Source: Candidatus Vogelbacteria bacterium RIFOXYD1_FULL_44_32 (GTDB lineage: Bacteria; Patescibacteriota; Minisyncoccia; Phycocordibacterales; XYD1-FULL-46-19). From it: a DNA stretch of 64,000 nucleotides. The position numbers and the translations under genes were made by a program. Under the pieces are notes generated by a model. It had not been told where the DNA came from. It worked only from the letters and a program-made list of their open reading frames with translations, and ran no database searches. How positions within the stretch are numbered: the stretch's first letter is position 1; the number at the start of each line of letters is the position of its first letter. Location of the stretch: positions 53,532-117,531 of the forward strand of contig MHTJ01000002.1 of NCBI GenBank assembly GCA_001823065.1. The letters are read 5' to 3'. This document shows positions 3,732 through 55,762 of the stretch, piece after piece.

Positions 3732-3914
3732 AGCTGGAAATTAAGAACCAAAAAGCCCACCACAAGTGAGGCCAAATGGCCCTACCTAAGTTTCCCTAGG
3801 TAACGTTCCAGACGCCCTTGTGATGGGGTTTTTGTCTGGAACGCTTTGCGACCATACCGTAGAAAAGTAAATTTCTACGGGTTAGGTCTTAATAAATTGT
3901 TATCCTGATATTAA

Positions 3915-5629: not shown

Positions 5630-7141
5630 TTAAAATGGTTTCAATTCATTTCCCGTTTCAACTGTTGATAGCTTTTTTTGTTTAGCTGGCCGAGCAAAAA
5701 TAATTAAGGGCAGATATAAAATTATTATTAACCAGATTGACACTGGCGGTACTAAAACCGAAGCCAGCGGTAGATGACTAAATATTTTTACTACTCCTAG
5801 CACATAAGCCAATAAGAAATAAGTTCCACTGCCTGCTATAAACGCTAAACTAGGAGAAACAAAACCCAGTATCCCCGCGATAAAACCAACCAACATCGTC
5901 AGGGGAATAAATGGCACCACTAAAATATTGGCCGGCAAAGCGACCAAACTTATTTCGCCAATTTTATAAAACAACCAAGGCGTCACCGCCAATTGAGCAG
6001 ACAAGGTGGCCGAAACGATTGCTCGTAAACCATATTGGTCCGTGAGCCAAGTCAACTTAGCTTCGAGCGGGGCCGATAAATAGATCAAGCCCAAAGTGGC
6101 CAAAAATGATAATTGAAAGCCGGTATCATTGGCTAAAATAAGAGGATTGTAGAGCACCATTAAAACCCCAGCAATAAACAGCCCTACAGTAGCACTATAT
6201 ATTCGCCCGGTGGCTCGCGCCCAGACGGCAAGTAAGGCCATCAGAGAGGCCCGCACCACGGTCGGTCCCCCGCCAACCATTAGCGCAAATAATATTATAC
6301 TGACCGCTCCTGCCAGTAAGGTTAAATTAAAACTTAAAAAATAGGCCAGAAAAATCATTAGGGCCTCGGCCACAATCGTCATATTGTACCCCGACAAAAC
6401 CACAATATGGACCAACCCCGCCCGCCGAAAATCAGTCGTAATTTCCTCTCCTAACCCCCGCCTCTCTCCCACCAAAAGCCCCGCCAGTAAAGAAGAATGT
6501 GGTTCCGGTAAGGCTAGATTCACCTGCTCAATAAATTTATTTTTGAGGGCCAATAACCAAGTTAAAATATAATTACCCTGCCCTTGGTCAATAATTTCAA
6601 TCTTGGCCAAAGACATTTGATAATGAATATCTCTGACTTTTAAATAGGAAATATAATCAAACTCCCGCCCGCTATCTGTAATAAAGTTTGTTGGTAAAGC
6701 CACCAGACCAGTAATTTTCAAAACATCACCATAATTAATCTTTTTATATGGTGAGGTCGAAACCAAAATCTTTTCCTTTGAGTCTACCAGACGCACTACC
6801 AGACGAGTGGTTGTATCCCGTTCATCGGGACTTTCAACCACCACTCCCATCATTTCCTGTTTCTGCCCCACCTTATCAACTAAAACCGAATTAAAAACTA
6901 TAGATGATTGTAACCGCCATACCCCCAAACCAAAACCGAGGCCGAGGCAGGCCAAATAAATATAGGGCAAAAATTTACGCCCCCGTAAAAAATATAGGGC
7001 TAAAAAAATTGGGGTTAAAATTATTAGGGCCAATAAATCATTGACCTCAAATTCTAGCGCCCCCGCACCCAAAACACCGGCGAGAAAACCTATAGCTAAA
7101 TAAAATAAAACCTGACGAAAAAGTGATAAATTTACTCCCAT
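5630..7141 (-). CDS. comEC: ComEC/Rec2 competence channel protein (short form, no metallo-beta-lactamase domain)
   Basis: GLVHIVVLSGYNMTIVAEA competence-domain motif; polytopic membrane protein of 503 aa. Confidence 0.8.
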   Translation of the reverse strand: MGVNLSLFRQVLFYLAIGFLAGVLGAGALEFEVNDLLALIILTPIFLALYFLRGRKFLPYIYLACLGLGFGLGVWRLQSSIVFNSVLVDKVGQKQEMMGVVVESPDERDTTTRLVVRLVDSKEKILVSTSPYKKINYGDVLKITGLVALPTNFITDSGREFDYISYLKVRDIHYQMSLAKIEIIDQGQGNYILTWLLALKNKFIEQVNLALPEPHSSLLAGLLVGERRGLGEEITTDFRRAGLVHIVVLSGYNMTIVAEALMIFLAYFLSFNLTLLAGAVSIILFALMVGGGPTVVRASLMALLAVWARATGRIYSATVGLFIAGVLMVLYNPLILANDTGFQLSFLATLGLIYLSAPLEAKLTWLTDQYGLRAIVSATLSAQLAVTPWLFYKIGEISLVALPANILVVPFIPLTMLVGFIAGILGFVSPSLAFIAGSGTYFLLAYVLGVVKIFSHLPLASVLVPPVSIWLIIILYLPLIIFARPAKQKKLSTVETGNELKPF

Positions 7142-7927: not shown

Positions 7928-9670
7928 TTATGCTTGCCTCAAGTCAACTACGCGCAAGCGCAACTCCGGCCGGTTTTTAAAGGTTGATTTTTCAATATTT
8001 GCGAGCATGTCCACCCGCCGGCCAGGGGCCAGATTTACCCCCGGCCAAATATGACCCGAATCATAAGATAAATCACAACCAGAATCACAAGCAAAAAAGG
8101 CAATGGCCGAGATTTTATTGTCTTCATTATCTTTAAAAACAATTTCCACGTGTCCGCCGGTTTTACCAAAAGCTTTAGCGGAAACAATGGCTAAATTTTC
8201 GAGCCAAAACACTGGCTTGGGAAAATCTAGCCCATACGGCCCAATTTTTTCAATCTCTTTTTGCATTGCCCAGCCAATATCAGCCAGGCTAATTTTCAGA
8301 TCCGCCTCCTCCTCTTCCACCACCACCGTTTTGGTCATTTTTTTGTAGGCCTCTAATAGTTTTTTCTCTAACTTCACCAAATTCTCGGCTGGCAAAGAAA
8401 AACCACCCGCAAAAGCGTGACCGCCAAAATCACGGAAAAATTTTGGTTTGCCCGCCAAAGTCATTAGTTCAACCACATTTACTTTGCCGTCTGACCGGCA
8501 TGAACCTTTTATTTCGCCATTACCATTTTTGGCCCAAACAAAAACTGTCCGCCCATACTTTTCACTAATCCGCGCCGCCGCTAGTCCCAGCACCCCCAAC
8601 CCCCAATCCTCGTTGCCGACAACCAGCACCGCCGGCAAATTCTTGGTTTGATAATGTTTTTCGACAGTATCTAAAATTTCCGTCACTTGGCTACGTCTTT
8701 CTTTATTGCGCCCCTCCAAATCACAAGCAATTTGACGCGCCTCCTCTTCTTTAGTGGTCATCAGTAAATTAAAAGCCTCCAAGGCATGCGACATCCGACC
8801 CGCCGAATTGATACGCGGGCCAATCATAAAACCAATATCCTCTTCATTTATATATTCTCGTTTCAATTTTAAAACCCGGAAAAGCTCGAGGAGCCCCAGT
8901 CGGTGAGTCATTCGCAACACCATCAGGCCAAACTTGGTCATCGTTTTATTTTCGCCCGTCATTGGTACCATATCCGCTACTGTCGCAATCGCCACTAGTT
9001 CTAAGAGCCACTTTTCCCAACCAATTGGTATTGTCTCCAAATTACCGCGTGCTATTAGCGCCTGCACCAACTTAAAAGCCACTCCCGTCCCCGCCAAATG
9101 TTTGTAGGGATAGGCACAATCCGTCCGCTTGGGGTCAATCACCGCCACTGCTTTGGGTAATTTGGCTGGGGGCAAGTGGTGGTCGGTTACTACCACGTCT
9201 ATCCCCAACTCATTGGCTCGCTTTACTTCAACCAAATTAGAAATTCCACAATCAACTGTAATAATTAGTTGTACGCCATCAGCTTTAAATTTTTCTACCG
9301 CTACTACCGATAAGCCGTATTGTTCATTATGGCGATGGGGAATGTAAACACTAAAATTTTCGTAATTAATTTTACGAAAAAACTCGGCCAGCACCGCCGA
9401 AGCCGGCACCCCATCGGCATCATAATCGCCAAAGATTAAAATCTTTTCCTCATTTTCAATTGCCTGCAATATTCTAGCCACCCCTTTTTCCATATCCTTC
9501 AGTAAAAATGGATCGTGTAAATGTCTCACATATTCCGGCAAAAAAATCTCTTCGATTTCTTCTCTGGTTTTCACCCCACGATTTTTTAAAATAGCCGTGG
9601 CCACATCTTTTAGTCCAGCAAAAACATCACCTTTAGTTTTGCTAACCTTTATTTTCCACGCTTTTTGCAT
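7928..9670 (-). CDS. recJ: single-stranded-DNA-specific exonuclease RecJ
   Basis: DHH and DHHA1 motifs (ILIFGDYDADGV, VVVTDHH); 580 aa. Confidence 0.9.
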   Translation of the reverse strand: MQKAWKIKVSKTKGDVFAGLKDVATAILKNRGVKTREEIEEIFLPEYVRHLHDPFLLKDMEKGVARILQAIENEEKILIFGDYDADGVPASAVLAEFFRKINYENFSVYIPHRHNEQYGLSVVAVEKFKADGVQLIITVDCGISNLVEVKRANELGIDVVVTDHHLPPAKLPKAVAVIDPKRTDCAYPYKHLAGTGVAFKLVQALIARGNLETIPIGWEKWLLELVAIATVADMVPMTGENKTMTKFGLMVLRMTHRLGLLELFRVLKLKREYINEEDIGFMIGPRINSAGRMSHALEAFNLLMTTKEEEARQIACDLEGRNKERRSQVTEILDTVEKHYQTKNLPAVLVVGNEDWGLGVLGLAAARISEKYGRTVFVWAKNGNGEIKGSCRSDGKVNVVELMTLAGKPKFFRDFGGHAFAGGFSLPAENLVKLEKKLLEAYKKMTKTVVVEEEEADLKISLADIGWAMQKEIEKIGPYGLDFPKPVFWLENLAIVSAKAFGKTGGHVEIVFKDNEDNKISAIAFFACDSGCDLSYDSGHIWPGVNLAPGRRVDMLANIEKSTFKNRPELRLRVVDLRQA

Positions 9671-9722: not shown

Positions 9723-9767
9723 GCCCCCAAAAGTATTGGACACTCGGTGTCCAATACTTTTGGGGGC
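9723..9767. promoter_or_regulatory. 45-bp perfect palindrome (21-bp arms, 3-nt centre) in the divergent recJ/HIT intergenic region
   Basis: gcccccaaaagtattggacac tcg gtgtccaatacttttgggggc; it lies between two divergent start codons, so it is not a terminator. Confidence 0.5.
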
Positions 9768-9792
9768 ACCTCATTTTTGCTATAGTGAGTAA

Positions 9793-10152
9793 ATGGCCAA
9801 TTGCATATTTTGTAAAATTGTCGCTGGCGAAATACCCGCCCACAAGGTCTATGAGGACGACCATTTCTTGGCTTTTTTGGATATCAACCCCGTTTCTGCC
9901 GGCCATGTCCAGGTTATACCCAAAACTCACTACCGCTGGGTGTGGGATGTACCCAATGTCGGTGAGTATTTTGAAATAGTAAGGAAAATAGCCCTCGCTC
10001 AGAAAAAAGCTTTCGCCACCGACTTTGTCTTATCTAAAATTGTCGGCGAAGATGTCCCCCACGCTCATATTTGGGTTTACCTCGACCCCGCCCTCTCTGG
10101 TGACAAAAAAGATTTTGAAGGGAATAGAGATAAAATAATCAAAGAAATCTAA
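9793..10152 (+). CDS. HIT family (histidine triad) hydrolase
   Basis: CIFCKI N-terminus; HxHxHxx motif PHAHIWV. Confidence 0.85.
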   Translation: MANCIFCKIVAGEIPAHKVYEDDHFLAFLDINPVSAGHVQVIPKTHYRWVWDVPNVGEYFEIVRKIALAQKKAFATDFVLSKIVGEDVPHAHIWVYLDPALSGDKKDFEGNRDKIIKEI

Positions 10153-26170: not shown

Positions 26171-26266
26171 AATTAAAAAATTAAAAAAGTAATGGAGTAA
26201 TTTTAGCAGGTTTTGCTTTTCGCAACAGACTTGTCCTTAGCTAAATTAGTGTTAGAGTATGAAAAG

Positions 26267-26839
26267 ATGTCTAAACCTCAACTCAAAGGAGAAAGGCCAA
26301 TGGCGACGCAAGCGACTGTTGTCTTTCTCTGTCGAGAGAAAGAGGTGTATATGGGGATGAAAACCGACAAAATCGGTGTCGGTTGTTACACTGGGCCCGG
26401 GGGCAAAATCCACACCAATAAAGAAGGAGTAGCTCTAGAATCCATCCCAGACTGTGCTAGTCGCGAAGTTTTCGAGGAAATTGGGGTCATTGTGATGCCG
26501 AAAAGCCTCGACCAAGTGGCTATTATTTCGTTTGTAAACCAAGGAGAAACTCCAGCTAACACTAGTGTGTTTGAAGTTTATTTTTTTCTCACGCACAAGT
26601 GGCTGGGCGAGCCGATTGACTCGGCCGAGATGAAAGCTGGTCGCTGGTTTCCGATTAGTGACCTAATCGAAAGACCCACAACCACCGCCAAGCTCATGGC
26701 CGCCGACCCACTGTTTCTGCCCTTGATTTTCTCTGGTCAGAAAATCATTGGCGAGTGTATCTACGCCCCCGGTGGCCAGAAAGTGGTGGAAGACTGGCAC
26801 TACGAAGTTGTTGAAGATTTTTCTGAATTTACTGTCTAG
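26267..26839 (+). CDS. NUDIX hydrolase (start uncertain: 26213, 26267 or 26300)
   Basis: Nudix box GGKIHTNKEGVALESIPDCASREVFEEIGV. Confidence 0.75.
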   Translation: MSKPQLKGERPMATQATVVFLCREKEVYMGMKTDKIGVGCYTGPGGKIHTNKEGVALESIPDCASREVFEEIGVIVMPKSLDQVAIISFVNQGETPANTSVFEVYFFLTHKWLGEPIDSAEMKAGRWFPISDLIERPTTTAKLMAADPLFLPLIFSGQKIIGECIYAPGGQKVVEDWHYEVVEDFSEFTV

Positions 26840-26843
26840 CATG

Positions 26844-26873
26844 CTCGCCCCGAAACTAGGGGCGAGTTTTTTT
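26844..26873 (+). terminator. Rho-independent terminator
   Basis: ctcgcccc-gaaacta-ggggcgag followed by ttttttt. Confidence 0.7.
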
Positions 26874-26907
26874 GTGCGGGTAGGGAGAATCGGTCAGGAA
26901 TAATTTC
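26874..26907. repeat. 34-bp repeat A copy 1: the 3'-terminal ~20 nt of tRNA-Gly(UCC) plus 14 nt. Direct repeat of 27073-27092 and of 34970-35003
   Basis: gtgcgggtagggagaatcggtcaggaataatttc versus the tRNA 3' end gtgcgggtagggggaatcg, and versus 34970-35003 with one mismatch. Confidence 0.7.
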
Positions 26908-27072
26908 TCGCCGCCGCTCAAAATTTTCACGACCCTGGCTCATCTGTTTCTCTTGCTAGATAAACATGATTCCGCCTTTCGATTCCCCACGCAAGGTAAG
27001 CAGTTACCTTGCTCATCCCCGCCACTAGAGCCACAAAAATACCAGGCATAAACCTGGTATTTTTGTGGCCAG

Positions 27073-27143
27073 TGCGGGTAGGGGGAATCGAACTCCCGTC
27101 TGCACATTGGAAGTGTGCCATTCTACCACTAAACTATACCCGC
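27073..27143 (-). tRNA. tRNA-Gly(UCC)
   Basis: GCGGGTATAGTTTAGTGGTAGAATGGCACACTTCCAATGTGCAGACGGGAGTTCGATTCCCCCTACCCGCA. Cloverleaf with anticodon loop CTTCCAA; one A:C mismatch in the T-stem. Confidence 0.8.
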
Positions 27144-27147
27144 ATAT

Positions 27148-27813
27148 TTATCTAAGTACATTTTCTATCCAAGCATTAATCCTTCGGGCAAGATACACTC
27201 CAAATCTCTTGTCCCCATTACTCACTATACTAAGATGAGCTGTTCCAAAAGGCAACTTTCCTTTATTGAACTTTTTTTTATCCTTTCTTTGGTCAATTTG
27301 TATTTTTTGAAAATAATCTTTTTTAATTCCAAGCTCTTTTGACCAAAAATTAATCGCATCTACCACTTTATTGTCTGGATAGAGATGTAATCTAACCCTA
27401 AAATTAGAAATTGACAAGCCACATATTTCTTTAAACCATCTTACTGCTAATTTTATAATTTTTGGATCGGAATTAATAATCCTAACAGAATCATTTGTTT
27501 TTGCCCCCTCACCTAGATAAAGTCCAATACCCAACATAAATAAATCCCTTTTATTTAATACCCCAACATCTCTAATCGCCTCCTTTTTAGCAGCACTAAT
27601 AGATTCCAACTTTATTCTACGTTTAGCAAAATTTGAAGCCAGTCTCGCTTTTCCAATTTTATCTATGGTGTATTTATTAGGAGTATATGGAACATCCGAA
27701 AGCCAATAACTCAAAGTTCCCTTGGAAATATTCATTTTTTCATAAATATATCCATATGAGTATCCTTTCTTTCTCAATAAGACAGCTTCACTTTTGATTG
27801 ATTTCGAAATCAC
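27148..27813 (-). CDS. HTH-domain protein with a possible degenerate LAGLIDADG-like motif (LGIGLYLGEG), putative free-standing homing-endonuclease-like protein
   Basis: N-terminal HTH (KKGYSYGYIYEKMNISKGTLSYWL); central LGIGLYLGEGAKTND; starts 5 bp from the tRNA-Gly 5' end. Confidence 0.45.
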   Translation of the reverse strand: MISKSIKSEAVLLRKKGYSYGYIYEKMNISKGTLSYWLSDVPYTPNKYTIDKIGKARLASNFAKRRIKLESISAAKKEAIRDVGVLNKRDLFMLGIGLYLGEGAKTNDSVRIINSDPKIIKLAVRWFKEICGLSISNFRVRLHLYPDNKVVDAINFWSKELGIKKDYFQKIQIDQRKDKKKFNKGKLPFGTAHLSIVSNGDKRFGVYLARRINAWIENVLR

Positions 27814-27927: not shown

Positions 27928-28341
27928 CTATCTCAATTGATGCGCCCCGAATATATTATGAGGCCCATATATATCATATTGATATACACATTTCAATTTC
28001 ACATTACCAGTCACCATATCACAATTAAATGTTCGAAATACCAACCCAGTATTAGCCGCCGCGACGAGCCACTCTCTTGGAGCCACAACATACACCACCT
28101 TAGACTCTTGAATAAAAACCTCAAGTTTCTTCAGAAAGTCATCAACGGTATCTGCCCAAAAGTTTTTATGGTGCTCAATATCTACTTCACCATCCAACCT
28201 GGCAATTACCAGCTTTTGCTCGGCGCTGAGATCGTGGCGTGAAAGCCATTTGACCTTCGGACCACATAATATTGTGGACCCTTGGTATCTGATTTTGGTT
28301 ATCTTAATTTCATCGGCAACCACAAAAACATCGCTACTCAT
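27928..28341 (-). CDS. hypothetical protein
   Basis: 137-aa ORF with no recognisable motif. Confidence 0.5.
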   Translation of the reverse strand: MSSDVFVVADEIKITKIRYQGSTILCGPKVKWLSRHDLSAEQKLVIARLDGEVDIEHHKNFWADTVDDFLKKLEVFIQESKVVYVVAPREWLVAAANTGLVFRTFNCDMVTGNVKLKCVYQYDIYGPHNIFGAHQLR

Positions 28342-33596: not shown

Positions 33597-33804
33597 ACCT
33601 CGACGCTTGGCACCGAGAATCGGTCACGAGTTACTAACTAAATTCATCACTACGTTCTTCATTTATATTTATTAAGTACTCTTGACCCCGCCTCGGCTGT
33701 CTCGCTACACTCGACATGCCTGCGGCCTTCGATTCCGGCCACAAGCCAAGTCCTAAAGCCGTCCGGCTCGAAGTAGGCCAGTTGACTTGCTCACACCTCC
33801 ATTC

Positions 33805-33820
33805 TGTCGGGGCGCCGAGA
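33805..33820. repeat. 16-bp direct repeat of the tRNA-Pro 3' end (tgtcggggcgccgaga); the second copy at 33950-33965 lies inside the tRNA
   Basis: Exact 16-nt match, 145 bp apart. Confidence 0.7.
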
Positions 33821-33829
33821 CGCTTCGCT

Positions 33830-33883
33830 ATCTCACACCTCGGAAACCCACGGTTTTCCGACGGGCTTCGCCCTGCCTTCCTC
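33830..33883. repeat. 54-bp repeat B copy 1 (atctcacacctcggaaacccacggttttccgacgggcttcgccctgccttcctc); copy 2 at 35019-35072
   Basis: 51/54 identical. Contains two small hairpins (ggaaaac-ccacg-gttttcc and gggc-ttc-gccc). Confidence 0.7.
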
Positions 33884-33951
33884 TGCGGAGAACTCCCGTT
33901 CCCCGACCCCCTCCCGTCCGATTCTTGGCTTCCTCAATTTACTTCGTAATG

Positions 33952-34022
33952 TCGGGGCGCCGAGAATCGAACTCGGACCGCTCGGTCCCAAACCGAGTAC
34001 ACTACCACTATGCTACGCCCCG
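33952..34022 (-). tRNA. tRNA-Pro(UGG)
   Basis: CGGGGCGTAGCATAGTGGTAGTGTACTCGGTTTGGGACCGAGCGGTCCGAGTTCGATTCTCGGCGCCCCGA; C1:G72 pair; anticodon loop TTTGGGA; the D-stem has G:U pairs. Confidence 0.8.
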
Positions 34023-34706: not shown

Positions 34707-34969
34707 AAGAGATAGTTTTTAAGGATTAAAGCCATTTTTAGCCAAAAACCCTTTATTTAGGCCATTTATTCGGACATACTTATATTTATAGCCATTTATT
34801 TGGGACTGAAAAGGTCGTCTTTTATCCCCACCGTCCCCAACTTTATCCCCGTTTTTGACCAAAAATGGCCTAAAATATAACAATTTATGAGACCAGGTAT
34901 TGACTGGCCTTGTCTGTCGTTTTACTAAATCTGTTTCCCGTGAAATAGGGGATTGATCGAACTTAATTT

Positions 34970-35003
34970 GTGCGGATAGGGAGAATCGGTCAGGAATAAT
35001 TTC
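34970..35003. repeat. 34-bp repeat A copy 2
   Basis: gtgcggatagggagaatcggtcaggaataatttc, 33/34 identical to 26874-26907. Confidence 0.7.
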
Positions 35004-35018
35004 AAAGAGCAAGGAGAG

Positions 35019-35072
35019 ATCTCACTCCTCGAAAACCCACGGTTTTCCGACGGGCTTCGCCCTGCCTTCCTC
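35019..35072. repeat. 54-bp repeat B copy 2
   Basis: See copy 1 at 33830-33883. Confidence 0.7.
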
Positions 35073-35175
35073 CACGGAAACCTACCGGTTTCCGACCCTT
35101 CCCCGTTCTATTCTCCTTGCCCGCACGCCAAACAAAAACGCACCCCAAGGTGCGTTTTTGTTTGGCCAAATTCTG

Positions 35176-35246
35176 TGCGGGCAAGGAGAATCGAACTCCT
35201 GTCTCGTCCTTGGCAAGGACGTGTTCTACCACTAAACCATGCCCGC
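35176..35246 (-). tRNA. tRNA-Gly(GCC)
   Basis: GCGGGCATGGTTTAGTGGTAGAACACGTCCTTGCCAAGGACGAGACAGGAGTTCGATTCTCCTTGCCCGCA, a good cloverleaf. Followed by a gccaaacaaaaacgcacc-ccaa-ggtgcgtttttgtttggc terminator hairpin and an inverted copy of its own 3' end (35108-35123). Confidence 0.85.
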
Positions 35247-35331
35247 AAACAGTTTCAAGTATATATTGATTTCAAATTATAGTAAATATTCCCTTGGTTT
35301 TTAGCTTATAACATTGTATTGTTAAGCTATT

Positions 35332-37400: not shown

Positions 37401-38309
37401 TCAAGTATTTTTCTTCCCATGGAATTTTTTATGGATGTCGCGAAGCTGGCGGTCAGTAATATGGGTATAGATTTGGGTCGTGGCAATATTGGAGTGGCCG
37501 AGCATTACTTGGACCGAGCGAATATCGGCCCCATTTTGTAAAAGGTCGGTAGCAAAGCTGTGGCGAATCACATGCGGGGTGACTTTGCCCGTAATACCGG
37601 CCTTCACCGCATACTGTTTTACAATTCTTTCAATACTACGAGTGGTGAGCCGAGTTGGGGCGTCGCCTTTTTTAGCCAGACTAACAAACAGCGCTTCCTC
37701 GACATCACCACGTTTGTGTAAATAAGCCTTTAGCGCATCTTTGGCATCATCCGACAAAAAAACTAGTCGCACTTTTTCTCCTTTACCACGAACAGTAAAC
37801 TCATCGCGGGCCAAATCAAATGAATCACGGTTTAGACCGGCGAGCTCCGACACCCGCAGACCAGTAGAAAAGAATAACTCGAGAAAAGCCCGATCCCGTA
37901 AAGACATTTCGCTACCACCCTCGGGGGCCTGCAACAGGCGAGTGAGCTCGGCGCTGGAAATAAGCTCGAGCTCGCGACCACCAGTTTTGGCCAGTTCTAT
38001 CCGCTCGGGGGCCAAGGATTTGACTCCCCGTCGGGCTAAATATTTGAGGAAAGTCCGCAAGGCAATAAGATAGTAGTTTTGCGTATTTTTCTTGAGGGTA
38101 CCAGCAGGGGAGGGTTGGCGGTTTAGCCAGAGGCGAAATTCACGCAAAACCTCGTCGGTAATACCCGAAGCGGTCGTGACCTTGGTTTGTTTTAAAAAAC
38201 GGGTTAAATAGCGGTCGTAGTTTTCAACCGTTTTTAGACTGCGACCTTTTTCAATCTCGATATATTCGAGAAATTGGCGTTTTAAAGTGTCGATTTCGGT
38301 GGTGGACAT
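37401..38309 (-). CDS. xerC: tyrosine recombinase XerC/XerD family
   Basis: N-terminal core-binding domain; C-terminal R...HxxR...Y catalytic motifs (HVIRHSFATDLLQNGADIRSVQVMLGHSNIATTQIYTHI). Confidence 0.85.
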   Translation of the reverse strand: MSTTEIDTLKRQFLEYIEIEKGRSLKTVENYDRYLTRFLKQTKVTTASGITDEVLREFRLWLNRQPSPAGTLKKNTQNYYLIALRTFLKYLARRGVKSLAPERIELAKTGGRELELISSAELTRLLQAPEGGSEMSLRDRAFLELFFSTGLRVSELAGLNRDSFDLARDEFTVRGKGEKVRLVFLSDDAKDALKAYLHKRGDVEEALFVSLAKKGDAPTRLTTRSIERIVKQYAVKAGITGKVTPHVIRHSFATDLLQNGADIRSVQVMLGHSNIATTQIYTHITDRQLRDIHKKFHGKKNT

Positions 38310-53401: not shown

Positions 53402-55762
53402 TTATTGTCTCAAGCGGAAAAGAATTTCTTGTTCCACCTGACCTAAATCTCGCCCGTAGGTAAGGCGCGACAGCTCTTTGAGTTGTTCCGCCAGCTCGCG
53501 GGAGCCACCATCGACCCGAGGCACTTTAATATTGAAAGGTTTGGCTGGCTCACCATTTATTAAAATTTTTAAATAAGCATTTTGATTTTCAATGGAAATT
53601 AAATCATTTTCCGTAAAGGTCTGGCCGAAATGTTTGACTAAATGTTCAGCATCAGTGGTACCCACCCGAAAAGCGGCTAGCGAACCAACGTTGCCAAAAA
53701 CTGCCTCACGAATTTCATCGGTGAGTTGAGCAATAAATTGGTGCGCTAAAATTAAATTTAACCGATACTTCCGCGCTTCGGACAAAATAACCGAAATAGA
53801 GTCGGTGGTGAAATTTTGAAATTCATCAATGTATAAATAAAAATCTTTACGGTCATTTTCCGGAATATCAGTCCGCGACAAAGCCGCCAGTAGTAACCGC
53901 CCCGTACAAATCATCCCCAACAACCCGGCATTAATATCACCAATTTTACCTTTAGCAAGGTTCACCAACAAAATCTTCCGTCCATCCATTACTTCGCGGA
54001 AATTAAAGGCCGACTTAGGCTGGCCAATAATCGGTCGCATATAATCGTTGGCAATAAAATTACCAAACTTGGAGGTAATATAGGGCGTCATATTGGCCAG
54101 GCCCTGCTCACCGGTCGTTTTAGACGCTTCTTTTTCCCAAAAATCAATCACAGTTGGATTACTAATCCGCCCCAACTTTTTATTACGAAAAGCCGGGTCG
54201 GTAAATATCCGGGGTACCTCCATTAGGGTCGCCGGTTCATATTTGGCGTCTTCCATCAACAAAAGGAGGGAATTCCTCATATATTGCTCAAACATTGGCC
54301 CCATCGTCTCTTTATCAAACAACCGGTTGAAGATAGATTGAATTTCGTTGACAATAAAAGTTTTTTCCTCGGGGCGGTCAAAGTTATATTCCAGCATATT
54401 TAGCCCCAAAGGCCGACCCACATCGCCCGGGTTGAAAACAATCACATCTTCGAGACGCGAAGCGGGGACTCGTTCCAAAACTTTGTCCACCAACTCACCG
54501 TGGGGGTCGATAACACACAGACCCTTGCCCGCCTCCATATCTTGAGCAATGGTATTTAACATAAAATACGATTTACCGGTACCAGTCTGACCAATACAAT
54601 AAAAATGGCGCCGGCGGTCATTGTCGGCCATCCGCACCGGCTTCATATCCCCCCGAAACAAACTTTCACCCACCACCACTCCAGCTGGAGGTAAATTTTG
54701 GGGTGGGGGGGCTTCCCGACTCTTTAGCCACTTGATCCGTGGAATATCCGTGGTCACAGTCGGAAAGTGAAAGATGCTAGCAATTTCCTCGGTATTTAAA
54801 ACTATAAACTCTTTTGGCTCTGACTCACGGAAAATATATTGATGCACCAATTTTTTTATTTTTTTACCCTTGGGCAAAACCAGCTTAAAGCCATTGCGCC
54901 GGGGTGAAGAAAATTGGCTAAAAGCCCCCCCGATGGCGAGCATAATATCACCAGCTTCATTGTCGGTATCACCAGCAGCTACCACCCGGACATTGACATT
55001 GAACAATGGTTTGCGAATCTTGGCTTCAATTGATTCAATCACTTCATTGTCAATCGGCGCTGAGTCTAATTTTTTATCATCATCTTTTTTAGATGAAGAA
55101 AACAATTCGCCGGCAATTTCTGACACGGGAGCAAAAGTTTTATAACTTTTTAATATTTTTTTTAGTTTTTCACCTTTCCTTAATTTGGCCACAATATCTA
55201 AAGCGGTTTTTTTAAATGACGTCCCAGCTGGTGAAATCACTAGTTGAAGGGCCGCCCCATCACCCTCTTCCCGTAGGCGTGATAAGGTCGAGACAATCGG
55301 GGCAAAAGAATCTACTTCCGCCTCTCGATAAGTACGAATCGGAACAAAAGGAGCTTCTTCCAGTGCCAAATAACCAGCTCGCACTCCATGCTCGTTGGCA
55401 AAAATAGTATAATCGGCCACTTCATCTACCTGGGAATCGGGGAAAAAACCTTGGATTTGGCGAGCAACAAACTCGAGCTGGTTCCGAGGCGCACCAACAT
55501 AAAAATAGATATCGCCCCCAGAGCTATGGACCGCTGTCTCTAAAACAAATGGTTCTTTAATAGCAGTTAAAGCTGACAAAAATTGCTCAAGTAAATTAAT
55601 ATCAAATAAAAAATCCTTCTGGTCCTTGGCTTCGCGCCGAGCAATTTTGACCAATAATATTTTAAGATTTAGTGAATCAAACCGTTGGCGGTGCCATAAA
55701 ATATAAACACCACCAGCCATTAGGCCTAAAATAATAATTAGTAAAATAAAATATACGGTCAT
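53402..55762 (-). CDS. membrane-anchored FtsK/HerA/VirD4-superfamily P-loop ATPase (T4SS coupling-protein-like or DUF87-like)
   Basis: N-terminal TM helix; Walker A GQTGTGKS; Walker B LYIDEFQNF; C-terminal ARKYRLNLILAHQFIAQL (the RKxGxxxxxAxQxxxQL motif of TrwB/VirD4 and HerA). Confidence 0.75.
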   Translation of the reverse strand: MTVYFILLIIILGLMAGGVYILWHRQRFDSLNLKILLVKIARREAKDQKDFLFDINLLEQFLSALTAIKEPFVLETAVHSSGGDIYFYVGAPRNQLEFVARQIQGFFPDSQVDEVADYTIFANEHGVRAGYLALEEAPFVPIRTYREAEVDSFAPIVSTLSRLREEGDGAALQLVISPAGTSFKKTALDIVAKLRKGEKLKKILKSYKTFAPVSEIAGELFSSSKKDDDKKLDSAPIDNEVIESIEAKIRKPLFNVNVRVVAAGDTDNEAGDIMLAIGGAFSQFSSPRRNGFKLVLPKGKKIKKLVHQYIFRESEPKEFIVLNTEEIASIFHFPTVTTDIPRIKWLKSREAPPPQNLPPAGVVVGESLFRGDMKPVRMADNDRRRHFYCIGQTGTGKSYFMLNTIAQDMEAGKGLCVIDPHGELVDKVLERVPASRLEDVIVFNPGDVGRPLGLNMLEYNFDRPEEKTFIVNEIQSIFNRLFDKETMGPMFEQYMRNSLLLLMEDAKYEPATLMEVPRIFTDPAFRNKKLGRISNPTVIDFWEKEASKTTGEQGLANMTPYITSKFGNFIANDYMRPIIGQPKSAFNFREVMDGRKILLVNLAKGKIGDINAGLLGMICTGRLLLAALSRTDIPENDRKDFYLYIDEFQNFTTDSISVILSEARKYRLNLILAHQFIAQLTDEIREAVFGNVGSLAAFRVGTTDAEHLVKHFGQTFTENDLISIENQNAYLKILINGEPAKPFNIKVPRVDGGSRELAEQLKELSRLTYGRDLGQVEQEILFRLRQ

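Follow-up and report, generated by a model that had tools for sequence, protein, structure and literature searches.

A structured element matched to tRNA 3′ ends lies behind tRNA and tmRNA genes of Paceibacteria

Introduction

What does a second copy of a tRNA's 3′ end, lying a short distance behind the gene, record? The question is raised by a 64,000-nt stretch of Candidatus Vogelbacteria bacterium RIFOXYD1_FULL_44_32 (contig MHTJ01000002.1, positions 53,532 to 117,531; 'the window' below means this whole stretch). There, tRNA-Gly(UCC) lies on the minus strand (27072/3-27143; ARAGORN; Rfam tRNA model, 69.3 bits), so that its 3′ end, which encodes no CCA, faces lower coordinates, where a near-identical copy of that end follows. 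A first, sequence-only reading took this repeat for the classic footprint of a tyrosine integrase and the short DNA between the copies for a decayed or miniature element. We report here that the segment is one copy of a previously uncatalogued, structurally conserved element of ~130-200 nt that stands behind tRNA and transfer-messenger RNA (tmRNA) genes of Paceibacteria (Parcubacteria, candidate phyla radiation (CPR)), and we weigh what such a unit might do.

Results

The repeat and the unit behind tRNA-Gly(UCC)

The 19 nt at 27072-27090 (GTGCGGGTAGGGGGAATCG on the plus strand) are the antisense of tRNA-Gly(UCC) from C56 in the T loop through C74, and a repeat search found them again at 26874-26892, 198 bp downstream of the tRNA end, with 18 of 19 positions identical. 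When up to three mismatches are allowed, this pattern has four matches in the window against 0.01 expected by chance; the other two belong to tRNA-Gly(GCC), namely its 3′ end (35175-35193) and, 205 bp downstream, a further copy (34970-34988). The repeat described at first sight is therefore real. The segment it bounds exists as well, at a length of 179 bp (26893-27071) rather than the 177 bp first given, the coordinates having been 1-2 nt off. Both hairpins noticed in it are also present: caaggtaa-gcag-ttaccttg at 26992-27011, which sits within a longer stem (26991-27012), and a palindrome formed by a perfect 17-bp inverted repeat (27030-27046 and 27053-27069). The 179-bp segment holds no open reading frame (ORF), and its neighbours encode a NUDIX protein and a helix-turn-helix (HTH) protein.

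Read in the tRNA sense, the unit runs from the tRNA through a spacer or terminator-like hairpin to a strand antisense to the tRNA 3′ end (the inverted copy, strand a) and then to two core hairpins, P2 and P1; a long form adds a direct copy of the 3′ end (a′). Strand a is the Watson-Crick complement of the last 6-19 nt of the same tRNA and is split in the long form by a further hairpin, P3; in the short form it measures 6-9 nt without P3, and a′ only 3-6 nt. P3 interrupts strand a precisely at the junction of tRNA positions 65 and 66, and in the units of many tRNAs this position is kept and the stem covaries. Because strand a is sense-like on the plus strand, it is complementary to the acceptor 3′ strand when read on the tRNA-sense strand. 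In the predicted fold of 27027-26872, this 5′ strand pairs with the copy of tRNA positions 56-74, P3 branches at 65|66, and a′ on the tRNA-sense strand supplies the 3′ strand of a closing helix, P0. On this model, the direct repeat would be part of the unit's own closing helix.

In the palindrome at 27030-27069, an A tract and a T tract flank an inner GC stem, so that the palindrome looks the same on both strands; a simple terminator scan misses it because the T tract pairs inside the stem. A terminator test over all units proved confounded, as the U tract pairs with the A tract of the extended stem, and its result was discarded. The suggestion that an intrinsic terminator might explain the repeat itself does not hold, since the two copies are direct, not inverted, and the palindrome lies between them and excludes them; the inverted copy, strand a, is a separate segment from the palindrome. 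On the far side of the unit, the terminator of the convergent NUDIX gene, with its T run, directly adjoins a′.

Units stand behind tRNA and tmRNA genes in one orientation

A 19-mer (GAGAATCGGTCAGGAATAA) matched eight GTDB contigs, all of them Patescibacteria metagenome-assembled genomes (MAGs), and each match lies 150-190 nt from a tRNA 3′ end. The gapped pattern GGTCAGGAA-N15-35-TTCACGACCCTG, a 21-nt motif, matched at least 119 metagenome contigs, again all Patescibacteria; contigs of both sets have a homologous two-hairpin core. The instance set that we analysed numbers 128. Of these instances, 87 have a tRNA within 500 nt, and every one stands behind the tRNA 3′ end in the same orientation; together they cover 25 different anticodons, and the spacing is stereotyped (~133 nt in the short form, 150-185 nt in the long form). 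Across the fetched loci, a hidden Markov model of the core found 151 copies, and a contig often has 2-4 of them. Cores without a called tRNA stand at contig ends or behind tmRNA (L031, L040 and L052; L numbers are our own labels), an intron-containing tRNA (L105) or a truncated tRNA (L065). At the last of these (8640-8800), no more than 8 nt of a tRNA-Ala 3′ end (TGGTGGAC) adjoin a short-form unit, and the DNA beyond is unrelated; the tRNA-Ala was lost or moved and the unit stayed.

Clustering of the ORFs within ±4 kb of the 128 instances gave no enriched family (at most 13 loci per cluster, attributable to housekeeping synteny), and the genes nearby are IF-2, RbfA, Ddl, RuvA and similar housekeeping genes. 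The gapped pattern had no match in IMG/VR, where the 19-mer had two (L009, L010), both chance matches in unrelated DNA without a tRNA or the rest of the element, and BLAST found no match to the unit among INPHARED phages or PLSDB plasmids. With the 4227 families of Rfam 15 at gathering threshold, only tRNAs and a LOOT RNA pass in the whole window, and at E values up to 10 nothing relevant appears in 26700-27200 or 34800-35300. Searches of the literature by topic and by conserved sequence strings found no description of the element. Hammerhead, twister and pistol were considered as known small ribozymes or riboswitches and, judged by eye, set aside: their conserved nucleotides do not fit, and there is no Rfam match.

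The core covaries and folds on the tRNA-sense strand

In an alignment of 47 core sequences (A3), pairing holds in 95.8% of cells, and both partners change in 20 of 30 pairs, yielding 263 compensatory cells; none of 500 shuffles reached the observed value, and partners slid by 1-3 columns gave at most 35 compensatory cells. The outer G-N-C/G-N′-C pairs of P2 covary, and its internal loop reads GGA/GA on the tRNA-sense strand. The covariance model R1 scores the window's Gly(UCC) copy at 87.6 bits.

Several measures indicate that the folding strand is the tRNA-sense strand. Among 110 unique cores, 46 G·U pairs occur on the tRNA-sense strand (where the plus strand would have A·C), compared to 15 on the plus strand, and each of the 123 cores compared has its more stable fold on the tRNA-sense strand, by a mean of 5.6 kcal/mol (-59.3 versus -50.2 kcal/mol for the whole unit in the window). 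On the plus strand, conserved loops read TC/TCC in P2 and TC/TC in many P1 hairpins; their tRNA-sense counterparts are GGA/GA and tandem G·A, motifs with a stabilising effect on folded RNA and also on folded DNA. Positional enrichment over 117 instances gave no sigma-70-like promoter at a fixed distance on the plus strand. We read the unit in the tRNA sense on account of these four observations: the G·U asymmetry, the fold energies, the G·A loops and the lack of a plus-strand promoter signal.

The same data leave little chance that the unit is an independent small RNA gene on the plus strand, an antisense RNA whose 5′ end (a′) pairs with the tRNA 3′ end and whose transcription stops at the shared hairpin. 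The terminator at 26843-73 and the palindrome at 27030-69 do bracket the unit on the plus strand, and many units have an a′ in perfect antisense to the tRNA end, but the wobbles, G·A loops and fold energy favour the other strand, the 117 instances have no promoter-like signal at a fixed distance upstream, and a′ is missing or eroded in most units.

A conserved interior is likewise difficult to reconcile with a prophage or integrative element that a tyrosine integrase placed in tRNA-Gly and that has since shed almost all of its DNA. The direct repeat spans the T loop to the tRNA 3′ end, which is a typical integrase sublocation, and the units have further insertion-like traits: they use tmRNA hosts, have empty sites in relatives, and form tandems in which the eroded units lie farthest from the tRNA. 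However, the same ~180-bp architecture recurs at three loci in the window and more than 120 elsewhere, with a conserved and covarying interior; neither the segment nor the adjoining genes hold an integrase remnant; and nothing similar occurs among phages, plasmids or viral contigs. Every unit also contains an inverted copy of the tRNA end, which an attachment-site (att) scar does not explain. A decayed prophage fails as an explanation because the interior is conserved, no integrase lies in cis and one family sits on 25 anticodons; we find this origin hardly credible and regard it as effectively refuted already. The initial description of the locus as a classic tyrosine-integrase footprint of a decayed element is contradicted by the same facts, together with the absence of an integrase or enriched gene at the 128 instances and the synteny that units keep. 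A Xer-like tyrosine recombinase (37401-38309, minus strand), which scores similarly against XerD, XerC and archaeal XerA models, lies ~10 kb away and is the only recombinase among those of the window's ORFs that were scanned.

Each unit is matched to its own tRNA

We then compared units with the tRNAs beside them. An inverted copy with at least 5 nt exact occurs at 59 of 102 tRNAs with a core versus 12 of 91 without one. In a three-way comparison with the own tRNA, strand a alone differs at 23 of 646 positions and a′ alone at 268, and strand a fits its own tRNA nearly throughout, including in units where a′ is absent or eroded. Direct repeats of 14-24 nt exact with the own tRNA are found in 17 of 45 distinct long-form units, covering 13 anticodons, compared to a longest direct repeat of 10 nt with tRNAs of other amino acids.

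In tRNA-Ala units the inverted copies keep T70, so that the anti-3′-end strand has A, not G, opposite U70; judged from these letters, strand a in tRNA-Ala units is plain complementarity and not identity mimicry. We also considered a degenerate tandem tRNA copy and rejected it, as P3 is homologous across tRNAs rather than derived from each anticodon arm, and the tRNA-Ala strand a is a plain complement.

At the window's Gly(UCC) locus, the three copies of the tRNA end share derived states in different combinations. The sole mismatch between the direct copies falls at tRNA position 62, where the gene has C62, giving an A52·C62 mismatch in the T stem; T62 is found both in the distal copy and in relatives' tRNAs. 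The derived C62 is common to the tRNA and strand a, and the derived T66-A67 is common to the tRNA and a′; relatives have T62 and A66-T67. C62 in the tRNA gene may stem from the imperfect inverted copy through template switching.

Two further loci in the window

The same arrangement stands behind three of the four tRNAs in the window (Gly-UCC, Gly-GCC and Pro-UGG), with two kinds of interior: type A at Gly-UCC and, degenerate, at Pro, and type B at Pro and Gly-GCC (Table 1). The type-B core is identical over 39 nt at its two loci (33845-83 and 35034-72). Behind tRNA-Gly(GCC), a type-A remnant lies distal to the type-B unit, and the sequence TAGGGAGAATCGGTCAGGAATAATTTC is exact at both distal type-A copies (26881-26907 and 34977-35003); the remnant's a′ (34970-88) has 1-2 mismatches to the Gly(UCC) sequence versus three to tRNA-Gly(GCC), beside which it lies. 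Both Pro(UGG) units open with an antisense copy of the tRNA-Pro 3′ end (33609-23 and 33805-20), and the degenerate core of the first scores 24.6 bits with R1 (E = 7e-4).

Table 1. Features of the three window loci, with coordinates counted from the first letter of the window.
Feature	Coordinates	Strand	Basis
Intrinsic terminator of the convergent NUDIX gene (26213-26839), with T run	26843..26873	+	Terminator scan; Pfam NUDIX
Distal repeat copy a′, 18/19 versus the tRNA 3′ end	26874..26892	-	Repeat and pattern search, fold
Core hairpin P1: GGTC...GACC base, long AT-rich stem, loop CGCC	26892..26934	-	Alignment A3, covariance model
Core hairpin P2	26937..26976	-	Alignment A3 pair counts; covariance model R1, 87.6 bits
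Strand a, T part (TTTCGATTCCCC, + strand): copy of T loop and T-stem 3′ strand	26977..26988	-	Sequence, unit comparison
Hairpin P3 (first hairpin of the sequence-only reading)	26991..27012	-	~25 homologous P3 hairpins
Strand a, acceptor part: + strand sense-like copy of tRNA positions 66-74 (CATCCCCGCCAC)	27014..27025	-	Sequence, three-way comparison, fold
Perfect 17-bp palindrome, 6-nt loop, terminator-like	27030..27069	.	Inverted-repeat search
Proximal repeat copy, the tRNA's own 3′ end, C56 to C74	27072..27090	-	Repeat and pattern search
tRNA-Gly(UCC)	27072..27143	-	ARAGORN; Rfam
Third locus: two tandem units behind tRNA-Pro(UGG) 33951-34022	33609..33950	-	Pattern, core comparison, R1
Pro(UGG) first unit, degenerate type A	a′ 33609-23; core 33623-33726; strand a/P3 to ~33800	-	
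Pro(UGG) second unit, type B; a′ 16/16 identical to 33950-65	a′ 33805-20	-	
Second locus, behind tRNA-Gly(GCC) 35175-35246	34970..35174	-	Repeat, pattern and core comparisons
Gly(GCC) locus, type-A remnant: a′, then GGTCAGGAATAATTTCAAA	a′ 34970-88; to 35006	-	
Gly(GCC) locus, second a′, truncated	35007-19	-	
Gly(GCC) locus, type B, with 18-bp palindrome	core 35020-35104; strand a 35105-26; palindrome 35127-66	-	

On the 5′ side of tRNA-Gly(UCC), an ORF at 27148-27813 (minus strand) ends with its stop codon 4 nt ahead of the tRNA, and its product of 221 aa has an HTH at the N terminus and a LAGLIDADG-like motif (LGIGLYLGEGAK); phmmer gives a weak match to I-DmoI (E = 0.07). This ORF and the next (27928-28341, minus strand) are both missing from the syntenic relative L129, and homologues (29-31% identity) lie within ~1 kb of other units in L016 and L048. 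The ORF may be a free-standing homing-endonuclease-like insertion.

Units are old residents with local turnover

Relatives were sampled without bias through homologues of RNase Y, which in the window is 100% identical to the NCBI protein of Candidatus Vogelbacteria RIFOXYD1_FULL_44_32. Two of them (L135 and L133; RNase Y 75-76% identical to that of the window) have empty sites, with the next gene 14-28 nt after tRNA-Gly(UCC) and no unit, so that a comparison with related genomes, as first proposed for the locus, does bring out tRNAs that lack the segment. The Gly(UCC) unit stands in the same synteny in L129, L005, L132 and L130; in L132 the orthologous unit has its P1 replaced, and in L130 an older unit is truncated and followed by a second one. 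The MAG labels of L130 and L008 ('Candidatus Saccharibacteria' or 'uncultured bacterium') look unreliable, given their Vogelbacteria-like genes (in L130, RNase Y is 90% identical). In L131 (RNase Y 89% identical; 9750-10085), the same NUDIX gene and terminator are followed by tRNA-Arg(UCU) instead of tRNA-Gly(UCC); this tRNA has a unit of its own, in which the direct repeat is 18/18, the core is of a third kind and P3 is unchanged. Gene order in L131 changes exactly at the unit, and units thus mark rearrangement breakpoints. In L007 (CCA-adding enzyme 86% identical), the unit at Gly(GCC) is a canonical type A, where the window has a type-A remnant and type B.

Type-A copies have a median identity of 0.74 within a contig versus 0.73 between contigs, leaving aside three exact tandem duplicates (L031, L045 and L033), and diverged copies on the same contig still keep their pairing. 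These data show units that are old and resident and keep their structure, that duplicate locally and erode distally, and whose copies of the tRNA end exchange sequence with it in patches. Turnover would consist of such duplication and erosion, together with copying from one tRNA locus to another. We read the pattern as residence rather than decay because pairing is kept despite divergence, synteny is kept and the neighbours are housekeeping genes.

Turnover of this kind invites the thought that units are functionless by-products of local DNA mechanics, such as unequal crossing-over between short repeats or template switching at a quasi-palindrome near the tRNA terminator, which would yield direct and inverted duplicates of the tRNA end. 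The E. coli tyrT repeats, in which the tRNA 3′ end is included, would be a precedent. The exact tandem duplicates, the mosaic of derived states among the three window copies (C62 in tRNA and strand a, T66-A67 in tRNA and a′) and the inverted copies that flank the palindrome all fit such an origin. We nevertheless consider it improbable, as it leaves unexplained a covarying 87-nt core common to hundreds of loci across genera and tRNAs, as well as the fixed position of P3, and as streamlined CPR genomes are not expected to keep pairing in functionless DNA of this size.

Empty sites and tandem arrays also bear on whether the unit moves. It could be a miniature mobile DNA element, non-autonomous and site-specific, that enters as folded single-stranded DNA, a possibility that we regard as real but doubtful. 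Its form would be a single-stranded circle of ~150-200 nt in which the duplex of a′ and strand a mimics the 3′ end of the tRNA gene, with P1 and P2 at one hairpin end and the palindrome at the opposite one. One strand would be exchanged in the T loop by a tyrosine recombinase of the host (e.g. the Xer-like enzyme at 37401-38309), and replication would complete the insertion; the newest unit would adjoin the tRNA, with older units pushed outward. Folded single-strand recombination mechanisms operate in CTXphi and at integron attC sites (PMC3442271, PMC3089051, PMC4792948). A crossover in a′ of such a circle predicts the order a′ - core - a - hairpin - tRNA, and the NUDIX terminator with its T run adjoins a′ as a terminator adjoins a tRNA end. 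Movement is also consistent with the empty sites in L135 and L133, with tandem units whose distal member is truncated (window Pro, Gly-GCC and L130), with the type-B core identical over 39 nt at two loci and the type A that L007 has at Gly(GCC), with the use of tmRNA as a target, with stems that are almost wholly Watson-Crick in a strand-specific fold, and with the presence of a Xer-like recombinase in the window.

Other observations speak against movement. Type-A copies are equally diverged within and between genomes, which argues against a recent burst. One family occupies 25 anticodons, requiring a donor of the new 3′ end that matches each tRNA, and specificity for a single site is the norm among tyrosine integrases. 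No autonomous relative and no phage or plasmid copy turned up in IMG/VR, INPHARED or PLSDB, and the 128 loci have no linked gene. The direct repeat of the short form measures only 3-6 nt, and tRNA-specific segments flank the conserved P3, an arrangement impossible from a single crossover. We know of no 200-nt circle that serves as a recombinase substrate, and count this against the mobile reading too. The early suggestion of a miniature non-autonomous element survives as a live rival: tandem units and empty sites speak for it, and the viral, phage and plasmid sets lack the autonomous relative that it would depend on.

Discussion

A structured RNA module as the favoured reading

We tentatively favour a structured RNA module that is co-transcribed behind the tRNA and, on the predicted fold, closes into a stem resembling a tRNA minihelix. 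Transcription would start at the tRNA promoter, and the unit would lie within the 3′ trailer or read-through RNA. In the long form, the direct 3′-end copy would pair with the anti-3′-end strand to give a helix laid out like the acceptor/T-arm minihelix of a tRNA. The module could then act in cis on its own transcript, in 3′-end processing or the handling of read-through, or a tRNA-like small RNA might be released by RNase P/Z-type enzymes.

Several points weigh against this module. The unit would have to be transcribed through the strong hairpin at 27030-69. The short form, the most abundant class, has a closing helix of only 3-6 bp, to which the minihelix picture does not apply, and in the window the closing helix is imperfect, with the derived T66-A67 in the direct copy and the tRNA and the ancestral state in the anti-strand. 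The element is missing from some tRNAs and some relatives (L133 and L135) and hence is not essential. Tandem units, the identical type-B core at two loci and the breaks in synteny fit mobile DNA as well. Wobbles are very rare on either strand (61 of ~3170 pairs), and single-stranded DNA would show the same strand-specific folding.

A reading that spans RNA and DNA is conceivable, if less likely than the module itself: the two-hairpin domain may be a scaffold carrying a re-specifiable segment of 6-19 nt that pairs with the neighbouring tRNA or tmRNA at its 3′ end. In one form, it would be a natural cis-acting guide that brings an enzyme to CPR tRNA 3′ ends for processing, quality control or repair; in another, it would be a programmable element that is directed to the ends of tRNAs and integrates in the form of a folded single-stranded nucleic acid.

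Comparison with known systems

The attL/attR repeats left by tyrosine integrases at tRNA and tmRNA genes resemble the unit in running from the T loop to the 3′ end, in using tmRNA and in giving tandem units and empty sites. Unlike them, the unit has no integrase, cargo or autonomous relative, and one family serves 25 anticodons; it also has a conserved structured core, an inverted copy of the tRNA end and old, individually diverged copies.

The attP(+) site of CTXphi, recombined by XerCD, and integron attC sites are also comparable in form. There, too, two inverted target-like segments ~90 nt apart can pair to give a target-like duplex, folding is strand-specific and leaves conserved bases unpaired, the sequence of the stems is free as long as they covary, the newest insertion stands beside the functional site, and a host Xer-type enzyme is available. 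In contrast, the target of the unit would be the T loop and 3′ end of a tRNA rather than dif or attI, the unit is only ~200 nt long and carries no genes, and no circles, integron integrase or cassette ORFs were seen.

Downstream of E. coli tyrT, tandem repeats with a spacing of ~180-200 bp carry the last nucleotides of tRNA-Tyr; they differ from the units in being one locus in one species, with no known structured core, inverted copy or spread over tRNAs.

Known tRNA-like structures and RNase P/Z substrates (the tRNA-like domain of tmRNA, mascRNA, viral 3′ structures and external guide sequences) share with the unit a 5′ strand that pairs with a genuine tRNA 3′ strand. The predicted long form would add an acceptor stem stacked on a T stem, a discriminator-base end, and P3 at the place where the D and anticodon arms would emerge. 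The unit departs from them in that its T loop is replaced by the two-hairpin P2-P1 domain, no CCA is encoded and the short form lacks the helix. Orphan RNA motifs and extragenic repeats (LOOT, REP/REPIN-type and terminator-bearing repeats) are likewise intergenic, noncoding, hairpin-rich, present in many copies per genome and recognised by covariation, but the unit stands strictly behind tRNA or tmRNA genes, has a segment re-specified for each tRNA and matches nothing in Rfam.

What the unit may mean

The CPR makes up a large share of bacterial diversity, and its RNA biology is almost unknown. Units attached to a large fraction of CPR tRNA and tmRNA genes would represent either an undescribed layer in the handling of tRNA transcripts or a new type of tiny site-specific mobile element. 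Perhaps, though we would not presume it, they represent a new kind of guide or mobile system directed at tRNA ends; to our knowledge, neither such a guide nor a programmable system that seeks tRNA ends has been described in bacteria. In genome annotation, the resemblance of the units to att scars could lead to false calls of prophage boundaries or tRNA pseudogenes. The covariance model R1 makes the family searchable and the question testable.

Other features of the window

A LOOT RNA (Rfam RF03000; 71.8 bits) lies at 3769-3888 on the minus strand, with a hairpin and T run before it and a T run after it. A second LOOT stands beside the relic unit in L065; an association between LOOT and the unit there was dismissed as a coincidence of the truncated tRNA-Ala locus. 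Two functions in DNA transfer or uptake occur in the window, in a genome whose genes are otherwise mostly housekeeping: a TraG/VirD4-like coupling-protein ATPase (53402-55762, minus strand; weak Pfam matches) and a ComEC-type competence protein (5630-7141, minus strand).

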